Below, in pieces: positions 20,864 to 27,849 of a stretch of DNA of 32,000 bases (positions are counted from its first letter, which is position 1; every line of letters begins with the position of its first letter). The DNA is from Candidatus Jordarchaeales archaeon (GTDB taxonomy: Archaea; Asgardarchaeota; Jordiarchaeia; Jordiarchaeales; Freyrarchaeaceae), in assembly GCA_038889235.1 (NCBI GenBank), contig JAWAHN010000002.1, positions 344,356 through 376,355 on the forward strand. Direction: 5' to 3'. Position numbers and translations under genes: made by a program. The notes under the pieces are model-generated. The model worked only from the letters and a program-made list of their open reading frames with translations. It made no database searches and had not been told where the DNA came from.

Positions 20864-22906
20864 CTACTTATTCAGAATTATTAAGTCTCCCTCTCTCCTA
20901 ATCATTCCAGCCCTCTCAAGCCAGGCGATAGTTGCCTTAAGCTCCGCTGGCGTTATGCCGGTCGCCTTCTGGAGGCTGTCAAACGCTATCTTCTTTATAG
21001 ACTCTATTATGAAGTACACCTTAAACCTTGGGTCCAGCATCATCGCTCCCTTGTACTTCTCCACCTGTTCTTCCTTCTTCTTCTTTTCCAACTCAAGCTC
21101 CTCTTTTATCTTCTCAAGTTCCTTGACTTTCGTCTCAAGCTCCTTAACCTTAGCATTTATTTCACTCTCCGTCTCTGTTATGGCTTTCTCCAGCAGCTTA
21201 ACAGTCCTTCGCATCCCCTCAAGTTCCTCCTCCTTAAGCATCAGCGCCCTTTCCTTTTCAGCTAGGACTTCAGGGCTCACGCTGGGCCTACTTCTAAGCT
21301 CCTCGACCTCCTTGCGAAGGGAACTTACCTCTTTCTCAAGCTCCGCCACGAGGCTTTTGTGAAACTCGAGCTCCTCTTTCTTGACTTCTAAGTCCTTCGT
21401 TCTGTCCTCAACAATGGAGCGGAGGCGCTCAATTTCCCTCTCCTTAAGCTTAAGCCTGCTCTCCCCAGCCGCAATTAGGCTGTCTCTTTCCCTAAGCATC
21501 TCTTCCAAAGTCCTTATTTGTTCGTTAAAAGCCATTATCTCCCTCTGAGCCCCCTCAAGCTGTCCCTCGAGCTCAGCCACACGCATACGCTCCCTTTCAA
21601 GTCTCTCACGCAGAGCCACGAACTCCTCACGTGCCAAGTTAAGCTCTTTTTTCACGCTTTCCAGCTCAGCCTTCTTCATCTCCAATTCCTGCTCCCTTTC
21701 GCTGAGCTCCCTCCTCTTCTCCTCGAGCAACCTAGTCGCTTCCTGCAGAGCTCGCTCTTGCTCAGCAAGTTTCCGAGTCGCCTCTTGTAGTGCTCGCTCC
21801 CGCTCCTCGAGCAGCCTAGTCGCCTCTTGTAGTGCTCGCTCTCGCTCGGCAAGCTTCTGGGTCGCCTCCTCTATTCTCGCCTTAGCCTCAGCCTCCTCTC
21901 TTCTCAATTGCTCCATTTCCCTCTTGGCGGCTTCTAGCTCGGCTGTCAATTTAACTGACCGCTCTTGCTCCTCCCTAAGCCGTGCCAGGGTGACTTCGTA
22001 CTCGAGTTTAGCTCTTTCAAGCTCTTCCTCGATTTTCTTGAGCGCCTGCTCCCGCTCCCTCAGAACTTTCTCCCTTTCTTTAAGCTGCACGCTGCTCTCT
22101 TCAAGCAGCTTCTCGAGGTTTTCTCTCTCCGTGTTTAGGATTTGAATGCGCTTCTTCATGTCCTCCTCTTCTGCTTTCAGGCGTGCTACCTCTTTCCGCG
22201 AGTCTTCGAGCATTCTCAGAAGGTACTCAGACCTCTCCCTTTCCCTTTCAAGCTTCTGCGTCAAACCCTGAAGCTCACCCCTCGCCTTTTCGACTTCGAC
22301 ACGCTTATCTTCAAGCTCTCTCTTCAGAAGATCGAGCTCCCTCCTCTTCTCCTCGAGCTCCCGCTCCCTTTGCTTCAGCGCTTCGCTGCTCTCCCTAACC
22401 AGCTGCTCTCTCTTCCTGACTTCCTCGTCGAGCCTCGAAATTTCTTCGATGAGCCTTGCCTCCTCCTTGTTTAGGACTTCAATGAATTCTTTCGCAAAAC
22501 GTGAAAGCGCCTCCCTAAAAGCTTCAAGCTCAACCTCGGTTGCCGACATAATCTCGTGCATCGTGTTACGGGCTATCTCGTCAACGACCCCGGAAACTGC
22601 CTCCACGAAGACGTTCTTTATAAGTTCAGAAGCAAAGTGCATTTTAATTCTAGATACGACCTCCCTACTCACGTCCTCCCTCATGTCGAGAATTCTCTTC
22701 TTAAGCATCTCAAGGCTCTTAGAAACGGCGGAGTCAAGCCCAGACCTCACGTTCTCAACTATAGCCCCAAGCGCCTTAACGTTCTTCTCCACAAAGTCAG
22801 GGGAAAGCAAAGAAATACCTGCGCCCCTAGTTTCGTCAACCAACAGAGCAACCCCCTTTTCCCTGATAAAGTATAAATGAAAGGTTGCACTAATAACCTC
22901 TTTCAT
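20864..22906 (-). CDS. Long coiled-coil protein with internal tandem repeats and a C-terminal winged-helix-like domain; no ATPase motifs
   Basis: About 480 aa of continuous E/K/R/L heptads; C-terminal DPRFKVYFII...SLQKATGITPAELKATIAWLERAGMIRREGDLI fits the wHTH pattern. True start may be TTG 22843. Confidence 0.8.
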   Translation of the reverse strand: MKEVISATFHLYFIREKGVALLVDETRGAGISLLSPDFVEKNVKALGAIVENVRSGLDSAVSKSLEMLKKRILDMREDVSREVVSRIKMHFASELIKNVFVEAVSGVVDEIARNTMHEIMSATEVELEAFREALSRFAKEFIEVLNKEEARLIEEISRLDEEVRKREQLVRESSEALKQRERELEEKRRELDLLKRELEDKRVEVEKARGELQGLTQKLERERERSEYLLRMLEDSRKEVARLKAEEEDMKKRIQILNTERENLEKLLEESSVQLKEREKVLREREQALKKIEEELERAKLEYEVTLARLREEQERSVKLTAELEAAKREMEQLRREEAEAKARIEEATQKLAERERALQEATRLLEERERALQEATRKLAEQERALQEATRLLEEKRRELSEREQELEMKKAELESVKKELNLAREEFVALRERLERERMRVAELEGQLEGAQREIMAFNEQIRTLEEMLRERDSLIAAGESRLKLKEREIERLRSIVEDRTKDLEVKKEELEFHKSLVAELEKEVSSLRKEVEELRSRPSVSPEVLAEKERALMLKEEELEGMRRTVKLLEKAITETESEINAKVKELETKVKELEKIKEELELEKKKKEEQVEKYKGAMMLDPRFKVYFIIESIKKIAFDSLQKATGITPAELKATIAWLERAGMIRREGDLIILNK
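21719..21870 (-). repeat. In-frame 42-bp (14-aa) tandem repeat, about 3.5 copies
   Basis: AGTCGCCTCTTGTAGTGCTCGCTC is identical at 21776-21799 and 21818-21841; CTCCTCGAGCA(A/G)CCTAGTCGC recurs 84 bp apart. Encodes ERERALQEATRLLE / ERERALQEATRKLA / EQERALQEATRLLE. Confidence 0.9.
22864..22878. promoter_or_regulatory. Probable bidirectional TATA element shared by the coiled-coil gene and rbsK
   Basis: GATAAAGTATAAAT gives TATAAA on plus and TTTATA on minus, with suitable spacing to the rbsK RBS (22911) and to TTG 22843. Confidence 0.5.
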
Positions 22907-24722: not shown

Positions 24723-25679
24723 ATGTTTAATCAAGTGTTTAGACGAAGAGTACGCAAGCTTCAGGAGGAAATTCTTAAGCTGAAAGAAAGAGAGAACGCA
24801 TTAATATTGGCTCACAACTACCAGGTTCCAGAAATTCAAGAGATAGCGGATGCTGTTGGAGATAGCCTCGAGCTCGCGATGATTGCCCGGAAAAGCAAGA
24901 ACGCAGACTTCATAGTTTTCTCGGCTGTCGATTTCATGGCTGAGACTGCCGCCATCCTTAACCCCGACAAGGAAGTTTACGTTCCAGATCCAACTGCTAG
25001 GTGTCCTATGGCATTAATGTGTCCACGAAAAGTTGTCGTCGAAGCCAAACGCTTGCACGACGGGGTTCCCGTGGTACTTTACGTTAACACGCTTGCTGAG
25101 GCGAAAGCTGAAGCAGACGTAATATGCACCTCGGCTAACGCTCCGACAATAGTGGAGAGGATGGGGGCAGAAGAAGTGCTTTTCGGCCCGGATAAAAACC
25201 TGGGTTTATATGTTGAGAAAAAGACTGGCGTTAAGATTTTCCCCGTCCCTGAAGACGGTTACTGTTATGTTCACGTGATGTTTAAACCACACCACATAAT
25301 CGAAATGAAGAAAAAGCACCCGGACGCGGTTGTTATGGTGCACCCTGAGTGCACACCTGAAGTTCAAAAAATTGCAGACTTCATAGGGTCAACCAGCCAG
25401 ATGTACAGGTATGCTAAGGAGTCGAACCATGAAAAGTTCATTGTGGGAACCGAAATCGGGCTTATCGACAGAATGCGGAGGGAAATAGAAGGAAAAGTGT
25501 TCATTCCAGCGCTGAAAAAAGCAGTATGCGAGGACATGAAGAAGAACAGCTTGGAAAAAATTAGGCGCGTGCTCCTAGAGAGGCCACGTAGAAACCTCAT
25601 AATAGTCCCAGAGGATATAGCTAATAAAGCAAGAAAAGGCATAGAGCGGATGTTTGCAATGATGGAAAAAGGAAAATGA
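24723..25679 (+). CDS. nadA: Quinolinate synthase A
   Basis: LILAHNYQ, FMAETAAILNP, CPMA, YVNT, CTSANA, CYVH, HPEC, GST and third Cys in AVCEDMK. Confidence 0.96.
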   Translation: MFNQVFRRRVRKLQEEILKLKERENALILAHNYQVPEIQEIADAVGDSLELAMIARKSKNADFIVFSAVDFMAETAAILNPDKEVYVPDPTARCPMALMCPRKVVVEAKRLHDGVPVVLYVNTLAEAKAEADVICTSANAPTIVERMGAEEVLFGPDKNLGLYVEKKTGVKIFPVPEDGYCYVHVMFKPHHIIEMKKKHPDAVVMVHPECTPEVQKIADFIGSTSQMYRYAKESNHEKFIVGTEIGLIDRMRREIEGKVFIPALKKAVCEDMKKNSLEKIRRVLLERPRRNLIIVPEDIANKARKGIERMFAMMEKGK

Positions 25680-25843
25680 CCTGTTAACAGCCTAGCGAAG
25701 CCTAAAAATCAGGCTCTGGCCTCCCGGGCGACTTAAACCTACATGAACGGCGAAAACCATGCTGGCAACCTCACGGCGACCCTAGATTTGAGGAGGATAA
25801 ATTAAAATTCTCGCTTCTTCTTTACTTGAAACTGGGAGCCTAT

Positions 25844-25908
25844 ACGATGACGCAATCCGGCAATTACGACTCCAAAACTTGGAGGATGAGTGGTCAAAGT
25901 TACGCTGA
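25844..25908 (+). ncRNA. Candidate box C/D guide sRNA
   Basis: C-like ACGATGA (25844-50), D'-like ACGA (25866-69), hairpin CTCCAA-AAC-TTGGAG, C'-like GGATGA (25884-89), guide GTGGTCAAAGTTAC (25890-25903) and D box CTGA (25905-08). The guide's complement GUAACUUUGACCAC resembles the LSU helix 69 loop. Confidence 0.55.
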
Positions 25909-26220
25909 GGGGTAAATCGCCAACCTTCATGCGCCACTCCACTGCTTGTGTCTCAGAATTTCATGCTAAAAGTTTTCGCGCTCAAGAAAATTTTCCGCGT
26001 GCCCGGCTGGTGCCTCCAACAAGGTGTCGACCTCAAAAGTCTTAAAATGCGCATAAAAAGGAGCTTTTTCTTAAAATAAGTGACTTGTGACGTGCCGTAA
26101 TATGTCCTAGCACTTTTTACGTGTACATAGTTCTAATAGGCGCGAAAGATTACGATGCACGTGTCCCCTCAGTTAGCCTAAGAATATAGCGGTCTTCACT
26201 CCACTTGCAGCCGTCCTACG

Positions 26221-27849
26221 TTGCAACAAGAGGCGAAAAGTTTTTTTATGCGAAAAACGCTTTTCCCAGAAAAAACTCCCTGGGTGGGGAAATTGGCTAA
26301 ACTTAGTGGGAAAAGTCGCAGGGCAACGCTTCTGTCCCTCGGACTCGCCAACTTCATTCATCGAGCTGACATAGAAGCCTTACCAGTCTACATAACGTCG
26401 ATAGCAAGGGAGCTAGCGCAGCCCAGAACCATGATGGGGCTTGCAGTGTTCTCCAAAACAGTGTTCTATACTGCTATGGCCCCTATTTGGGGCTACCTGG
26501 CGGACAAGTACTCGAGAAAGAAAGTTCTGCTGGCAGGATGTATTTTGTGGGGCATCCTAACTATACTCACCGCTTTCGTGCAAGACTACAATCAACTTTT
26601 GATCGTGAGAATACTGACAGGCATAGGGCTTGCATCGATAATCGCCCCGTCCTTCGGAATAATAAGCGACTACTACTCCAGGGAAGAGAGGGGTAAGGCT
26701 CTCGGAATATTCGCACTTATAGGAGTTATGGGGATAGCGATCGTGGTTCCAATACTCGGAATGCTTGACTCCCCTAGCTTAACAGGAGGAATAGAGTCCG
26801 ACATAATCCAGCTCTTGTTAACTGCCTCTGCACCCGGCGGAGTCCAGCTGTTATCAAACCTCCTGATCCTGGACGCGAACGCTAAGTTCACTGTGTTCCT
26901 AGGATACTGGAGGAGAGGCTTCATCCTCGTGGGAGTTTTAAGCCTAATCATAGCTGTGATACTCTATCTTTTCGTCAAAGAGCCACCTAAAGGAGCCGCG
27001 GAAGCCGAGCTCGAAGGACTACCTGTGAAGGAAATAAGCGAAATATACAAGATATCTAAGAGGGACGTTTACGAGATAGTAAAAACTCCAACTATGGTCG
27101 TGCTTTTCGCTCAAGGCATTGCGGGCGTAATTCCGTGGACGGTGCTGGCCGCCTGGCTCATCCACTGGCTTGAAACTGCAAGATACCAGCCCCCAGGAGT
27201 TGCAACAACCATATTCGGACTAGTAGTCGTAGGCGTAGCCATAGGCAACGCGCTAGGCGGGTACATAGGCGACAGGATGCACAAGTGGAACCCAAACAAG
27301 GGCCGCATACTCACAGCCCAAATATCGATATTCATGGGAATCCCCCTCACATACATATTACTAACGCTCCCACTAAGCGCATTGGAATACACGGTCCTAG
27401 GCTTCATTACAGGTGCCGCCCTAAGCTGGTCCGGAACGGGCGCAGTCCAACCCATAGTGGCTGATGTAAATAAGCCCGAAGTTAGAGGCACAGCGTATGC
27501 AATAGAGCAGTTCTTCGAAACAGGCTTCTCCGCCTTCGGAGCTCTACTAGCCGGGTGGATGGCAGACGTCCTCGGTGGCGGCTTCTTCATGCAGTGGATG
27601 TCACCCTACGCCTATATCTGGCTACCGATACTCGGAGAATATGGCTTCGCTGGCATCGCAACCTGGATCGTGGCAGCCTACATGTCCGGGCAAGCTTTGA
27701 CCTCAGCTATGCTGCTCACCACAGTGGTACCATGGACCGTCTGTCTCATCCTCTTCACACTAGCATACAAGTACTACCCAGCTGATAGAGAGAAAATCCG
27801 CAGGCTACTTGAAGAAAGAAGAAAACAAGTGCTCGAAAAGAAAGCATAA
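26221..27849 (+). CDS. Major facilitator superfamily transporter (spinster-like subfamily inferred)
   Basis: Motif A GYLADKYSRKK, RILTGIGLA, second-half GGYIGDR, about 12 hydrophobic helices. Start is more likely TTG 26293. Confidence 0.9.
   Translation: MQQEAKSFFMRKTLFPEKTPWVGKLAKLSGKSRRATLLSLGLANFIHRADIEALPVYITSIARELAQPRTMMGLAVFSKTVFYTAMAPIWGYLADKYSRKKVLLAGCILWGILTILTAFVQDYNQLLIVRILTGIGLASIIAPSFGIISDYYSREERGKALGIFALIGVMGIAIVVPILGMLDSPSLTGGIESDIIQLLLTASAPGGVQLLSNLLILDANAKFTVFLGYWRRGFILVGVLSLIIAVILYLFVKEPPKGAAEAELEGLPVKEISEIYKISKRDVYEIVKTPTMVVLFAQGIAGVIPWTVLAAWLIHWLETARYQPPGVATTIFGLVVVGVAIGNALGGYIGDRMHKWNPNKGRILTAQISIFMGIPLTYILLTLPLSALEYTVLGFITGAALSWSGTGAVQPIVADVNKPEVRGTAYAIEQFFETGFSAFGALLAGWMADVLGGGFFMQWMSPYAYIWLPILGEYGFAGIATWIVAAYMSGQALTSAMLLTTVVPWTVCLILFTLAYKYYPADREKIRRLLEERRKQVLEKKA

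Follow-up and report, generated by a model that had tools for sequence, protein, structure and literature searches.

A conserved archaeal box C/D sRNA with two guides predicted to target neighbouring 23S rRNA sites in helices 69 and 71

Does a short element between two protein genes of a Jordarchaeales (Asgard) genome encode a methylation guide, and which ribosomal nucleotides would such an RNA address? The element lies in a window of 32,000 nucleotides (C2:344356-376355; the window is the whole stretch of DNA that was analysed) from a genome of 2.14 Mb that is 95% complete. A preliminary description of the window had read it as a C/D sRNA directed at helix 69 (H69) of 23S rRNA; the letters quoted there stand at the place given, and the otherwise empty gap of about 540 bp is the 541-nt gap between nadA, ending at 25679, and an MFS transporter ORF beginning at 26221. 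We find that the gene occupies approximately 25838-25913 of the plus strand and that the comparative sequence data make it very probably a functional sRNA; conservation, guide-target covariation and K-turn covariation all bear out the assignment to the C/D class. In the reading that we regard as probable, this is an independently transcribed double guide of about 76 nt, predicted to methylate G2071 through its D' guide and, despite a mismatch, A2039 through its D guide. Sequence, conservation, covariation, complementarity and the presence of the protein genes support this reading directly, and from these we infer transcription, assembly, methylation and tolerance of the mismatch.

Boxes C, D', C' and D follow one another in order and two K-turns can be formed, as expected of an archaeal box C/D sRNA (Table 1). 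Both spacers measure 12 nt and the span from box C to box D is 62 nt, in keeping with the spacers of about 12 nt and the length of 50-70 nt usual in this class; guides of 12 nt are the archaeal norm (PMC7229835). The four-box order had been recognized correctly and is conserved in all four other genomes of the family, but the registers first assigned to boxes C and C' (ACGAUGA and GGAUGA) were wrong, as an alignment of 38 homologs places the invariant UGA of both boxes 3 nt downstream. Spacer length, covariation and the variant in genome G003 rule out the former registers: the G-to-A change of G003 breaks the former box C but sits in the K-turn bulge in the corrected register. Read in this way, the boxes are non-consensus but compensated. 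The D' box ACGA forms A-U and C-G pairs with box C', the tandem G-A (GA/GA) cores are invariant in the 38 homologs, and the stem II pairs covary. The C6:D1 pair is G-C in 47 of 50 homologs, and D'1:C'6, which occurs as all four Watson-Crick types, is paired in 35 of 52 distinct homologs versus a shuffled mean of 14.7. Within the family, 97% of the cells in the proposed stems pair, a figure that comes from five sequences and is not significant alone.

Table 1. Features of the sRNA locus (positions in the window)
Feature	Position	Strand	Remarks
TATA-like element ATTAAAA, putative own promoter	25801..25807	+	46 nt before box C
5' arm, terminal stem	25838..25845	+	pairs with 25909-25913; fully paired in 5 genomes, a single two-sided change
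Box C AUGACGC, corrected register	25847..25853	+	alignment of 38 homologs; G25852 pairs with box D C25905
D' guide, 12 nt	25854..25865	+	C25861 (D'+5) faces 23S G2071; 9 contiguous Watson-Crick pairs
Box D' ACGA, variant compensated by box C'	25866..25869	+
Internal 6-bp stem-loop closing the C'/D' K-turn	25870..25884	+	folds; paired in 5/5 family genomes, one two-sided change
Box C' AUGAGUG, corrected register	25886..25892	+
D guide, 12 nt	25893..25904	+	U25900 (D+5) faces 23S A2039; A25897 (-8) faces C2042, mismatch
Box D CUGA, canonical	25905..25908	+
3' arm, terminal stem	25909..25913	+

In four of the five family genomes an AT-rich motif similar to the TATA-like word of Table 1 precedes box C by 44-50 nt, which suggests that the sRNA has a promoter of its own; the sigma-70 model used in a promoter scan is not applicable to archaea. 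The MFS gene follows the sRNA in all four family relatives as well, and nadA is absent within 1.5 kb there. From the sRNA to the probable MFS start (TTG at 26293) the distance is about 385 nt (window 25914-26292) versus roughly 120-140 nt in relatives of the same genus, and this stretch has no repeat elsewhere in its own genome.

Which nucleotides do the two guides address? The D' guide, whose target the preliminary description had missed, is the better paired of the two in this genome. Its uninterrupted pairing, which attains the 9 bp of the usual rule, is centred on a base 32 nt downstream of A2039; this base, G2071, corresponds to E. coli G1945 and yeast Gm2288, lies at the start of helix 71, and is the top-ranked D'-guide site across both rRNAs. 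The guide also covaries with its own rRNA at four positions: 50 of 60 combinations are Watson-Crick, the shuffled mean is 40, and 6 of 10000 shuffles reach 50.

The D guide is less straightforward. The organism's own H69 reads GGGAGUAACUCUGACUCUC, and within it guide positions -2 to -7 and then -9 to -12 form pairs, interrupted at -8 by an A facing a C, so that 10 of 11 bases are paired (6 bp, the A-C mismatch and 4 bp). Neither the rRNA sequence nor the 14-nt match predicted earlier is borne out, and an exact genome search with that 14-nt complement gave no match of at least 10 nt inside either rRNA. The GUGG/CCAC stem predicted for the rRNA is likewise absent, because the leading GUG belongs to box C' and not to the guide. 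At least 10 nt of contiguous complementarity to H69 had been named as the minimum on which the claim depended, and the longest run is only 6; it also falls short of the strict rule of at least 9 contiguous Watson-Crick pairs covering +5. Even so, sequence comparison indicates that the H69 target holds, because A2039 (E. coli A1913) is the top-ranked D-guide site when both rRNAs are scanned, and guide and cognate rRNA covary between genomes. The placement of the D+5 base opposite the A1913 equivalent has stood, as has the statement that the yeast equivalent of this bridge B2a nucleotide is Am2256, guided by snR63. Within the family, guide positions -2 to -7 and -9 to -11 do not vary; at D+5, each of the 27 genome pairs (genomes with both the sRNA and the rRNA) has a Watson-Crick U-A pair, and no second guide for A2039 was seen in the organism's own genome. 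Under the published relaxed rule, the weaker half of a double guide may contain one mismatch (PMC6009581) when the second target is within 100 nt, and the D guide conforms to it (PMC6009581, PMC4644070); one valid guide is in any case sufficient for the archaeal box C/D sRNA class.

How widespread is this arrangement? The sRNA is conserved in five of five family genomes. With search patterns that fixed several guide letters, the D guide (its -8 base left free) was found in 118 of 400 genomes of the phylum, most with the full four-box layout, versus about 30 for a reversed control, and in 27 of 301 Thermoproteota versus none in the control. A profile search adds lineages with variant D boxes, giving about 25 Asgard families in total, and the same double guide is present in Desulfurococcales and Ignisphaera genomes. 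Across the Asgard families and parts of Thermoproteota the D guide is always set on A1913 through box D and is usually accompanied by the G1945 guide. It changes in step with the rRNA of the same genome at three positions, -2 (C or G), -8 (U, C or G) and -10 (C or U): among the 27 genome pairs, which comprise at least five distinct guide-target types, 74 of 81 combinations are Watson-Crick (shuffled mean 46, maximum 61). Since the genomes are kin and not independent, shuffle tests of this kind overstate significance, and the counts are descriptive.

The homologs also vary in several ways. By eye, three lineages show a D' guide that has moved within the same stretch of rRNA without any shift of the D guide from A1913; this D' guide lies on the G1940 equivalent in family f5 (L042-L067), on the A1938 equivalent (yeast Am2281, snR13) in family f12 (L260/L263/L265) and at about C1934 in family f7 (L097-L107). 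Homologs of f3 (L246-L249) and f9 (L250-L252, L262) carry variant D boxes, CAGA or, with a compensating C box, UUGA; f3 and some of the f9 genomes combine a degraded D' guide with an intact H69 guide.

How, then, would one RNA serve two sites? In box C/D guides, L7Ae binds both K-turns, Nop5 and fibrillarin join, and the ribose opposite the fifth base before box D or D' is methylated. Genes for all three proteins are encoded in the genome, together with one 23S and one 16S gene. The RNA of about 76 nt would be transcribed on its own and fold into two kink-turns (C/D and C'/D'), each of which would be bound by L7Ae, with Nop5 and fibrillarin to follow. The two 12-nt guides would pair with a single short stretch of nascent 23S rRNA, H69 and the start of helix 71, their targets 32 nt apart, and fibrillarin would methylate G2071 via the D' guide and A2039, in bridge B2a, via the D guide. 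The A-C mismatch at -8 would weaken the D duplex without abolishing pairing; it may be tolerated because it is three bases away from the target and because the D' duplex would hold the rRNA in place, the linked duplex raising the local concentration of the D-guide target. An experiment on an archaeal hemi-complex, in which the duplex was tethered and very stable, saw no loss of activity from mismatches outside positions 3-5 (PMC1635284). On the strength of this tolerance and of the linked D' duplex, methylation of A2039 is judged likely, with less assurance than that of G2071.

The mismatch itself calls for explanation. All five family genomes are fixed for A at -8 (the rRNA was seen in three), whereas the 24 other genome pairs are all Watson-Crick at this position; apart from A-C, the 27 pairs contain no internal mismatch. 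Asgardarchaeum abyssi, three Thermoproteota genomes and one metagenome contig, whose rRNAs are unassembled, have this A as well; in 15 of 16 sampled relatives of one such genome the loop has the C and an intact UAACU. It is this fixed and recurring mismatch that is the new element here, as the guide pair itself is already published. Such constancy would fit a guide whose A finds a true partner in vivo, 23S C2042 (E. coli 1916) being edited to U or modified so as to pair with A, and the -8 A would then be the footprint of a C-to-U edit, or of an A-reading modification, that precedes methylation of A1913. We hold this to be highly improbable. The matching G is used by 26 of the 27 Thermoproteota that have the same rRNA C, including the expressed sRNAs sR91 and sR113, and A-C is the least severe of mismatches, with a single change leading from A to either U, the Asgard state, or G, the Thermoproteota state. 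No U occurs at the 1916 position among 88 Asgard or 16 Thermoproteota rRNA segments, and we know of no C-to-U editing of archaeal rRNA. The idea that the A avoids a UCAG/CUGA self-hairpin created by G likewise gained no support, as that hairpin is predicted at -2.2 kcal/mol at 37 C and does not form at 70 C, and 26 of the 27 Thermoproteota keep the G.

It is rather unlikely, though to be weighed more seriously, that the RNA methylates G2071 while the family's D guide, owing to its mismatch, only binds or chaperones H69 or methylates A2039 weakly. The predicted energy of the D duplex is -10.8 kcal/mol at 37 C versus -17.2 for a matched guide, a cost of about 6, and at 70 C, which is of concern as the samples probably come from hot settings (judged from genome names), it is -2.6 versus -7.2 kcal/mol; conserved non-methylating guides near H68-69 are known from Pyrobaculum (sR33; PMC6009581). 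Those published cases, however, mismatch at +5 itself, where U-A is universal here, and the constancy of the flanking guide positions within the family also speaks against this reading. We consider it very improbable that the D guide now serves another target, in place of H69 or in addition to it, for example helix 62 GUAACUU (A1840) or a tRNA. Helix 62 does rank second, through 8 contiguous pairs that include the -8 A, yet the A (-6.4 kcal/mol) brings no gain in predicted energy over a G (-6.7), H69 is still matched by positions -9, -11 and -12, and by eye no methylation is predicted at the A1840-equivalent base in seven archaea; exact 10-12-nt genome matches fall outside the tRNA loci listed, the list being incomplete. 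Finally, could box-like words in intergenic DNA have fallen into this arrangement by chance? In the single genome, a strict genome-wide four-box dual-target scan gave 2 matches against 1 in six shuffles combined, and a looser one gave 3 against 3 and 3, equal-scoring candidates being as frequent in the shuffles, so that too few dual guides stand above chance; the minimum-energy folding z-score is 0.14, although such folding is uninformative for K-turn RNAs. On these counts a single genome is weak evidence, and it is conservation, as read from the aligned sequences, that makes the element certain. With conservation across two phyla, covariation in both guide-target pairs and K-turns, and an expressed published counterpart, the comparative data refute chance, to which we give practically no weight.

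That counterpart is sR91 of Ignicoccus hospitalis, detected by RNA-seq with 770 reads (Dennis et al. 2015, PMC4644070, Additional files 1 and 3). Like the RNA described here, it combines guides for A1913 and G1945 in the same order and registers and has an internal stem-loop, and both sites appear in the 23S alignment of that paper. Its D' guide ends GGCAAG plus one base (G1945) and its D guide ends AGUUAC plus one base before CUGA (A1913). It differs in having near-consensus boxes and a fully matched D guide, with G at -8, in place of compensated variant boxes and the A-C mismatch. The two RNAs are likely orthologous, a relation that 70 nt cannot prove. Sulfolobus acidocaldarius sR113 has the same D guide register for A1913, and Thermoproteus tenax sR130 the same D' guide register for G1945, each with only that one guide; helices 68-71 have been termed a methylation hotspot (PMC4644070). 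The label of a "eukaryote-type" H69 modification was accordingly overstated, as sR91 and sR113 share the D guide register, and a reading of the guides as specific to Asgard archaea or to eukaryotes was discarded, since they occur in Thermoproteota. A literature search returned no measured methylation at these two sites in any archaeon and nothing on Asgard sRNAs.

In eukaryotes the equivalent bases are methylated as pairs, each 32 nt apart: Am2256 (snR63) and Gm2288 (snR75) in yeast, Am3760 and Gm3792 in human, Am2257 and Gm2289 in Arabidopsis, and Am2522 and Gm2554 in Dictyostelium (PMC8817022, PMC11542601). The A1913-equivalent is targeted through a box D guide with one spacer base by snR63/SNORD46 (U46), Dictyostelium CD4 (DdR4), Giardia GlsR7 and Rfam snoR442, which are mostly longer, single-guide RNAs, and the G1945-equivalent by snR75, plant U15 and Dictyostelium CD14 (yeast Gm2288, Arabidopsis Gm2289, human Gm3792). 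In those eukaryotes the two sites are thus served by separate snoRNAs, whereas here one RNA carries both guides. The likeness to the A1913-guiding snoRNAs is confined to the guide and boxes and is dictated by the target, the same limit that Hoeppner and Poole met for sR12/snR70 (PMC3511168). Across the window no Rfam family reached its gathering threshold, the weak matches to snoR442, GlsR7 and DdR4 scoring 12-21 bits versus thresholds of 50-75; with the SNORD46/snR63 family the RNA shares a target base addressed through the box D guide, a common function that does not imply homology. Common descent of the D half with the eukaryotic snoRNAs is plausible. The snoR442 (RF01232) consensus has GCAAG-C-CUG, a short stem and a UGA upstream of its D guide, which is the layout of the archaeal D' guide end, D' box and C', and the homolog L089:89-134 scores 20.5 bits against this model (threshold 50); the layout could be a vestige of a double guide, or chance.

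What is the meaning of such a guide? Archaeal methylation sites are mostly not conserved between species in published surveys (PMC6009581), and there has been one good candidate only for a guide common to archaea and the eukaryotic ancestor, sR12/snR70 (PMC3511168). The present guide persists across about 25 Asgard families and in some of the Thermoproteota, and yeast, human, plants and Dictyostelium all methylate the two bases, which makes A1913 and G1945 good candidates for sites whose methylation predates the eukaryotes. Independent convergence on what is a known hotspot must be allowed for as an alternative, and the link is not Asgard-specific. The single gene is ordinary and the value lies in the family, and the A-C mismatch, being fixed, can serve as a natural experiment on the tolerance of a double guide for mispairing.

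A number of further observations concern this genome and its relatives. A decayed duplicate of the sRNA lies outside the window in another intergenic region of the same genome (C1:291685-291750, plus strand; profile E 4.7e-5); both guides are recognisable and the -8 A is retained, and the copy is probably inactive, because its box C' begins UUGA and its box D reads CGGG. Within the window, a 680-codon ORF on the minus strand (20864-22906) has no Pfam match. Only 14-20 tRNA loci were detected despite the 95% completeness, most with introns, several of them 11-20 nt long, and many tRNAs of this genome may have multiple or unusual introns. The 23S genes of several relatives (L020-L022, L025, L026) are interrupted in or just after helix 69, as seen from split matches, and these interruptions are probably rRNA introns adjoining the methylation target.
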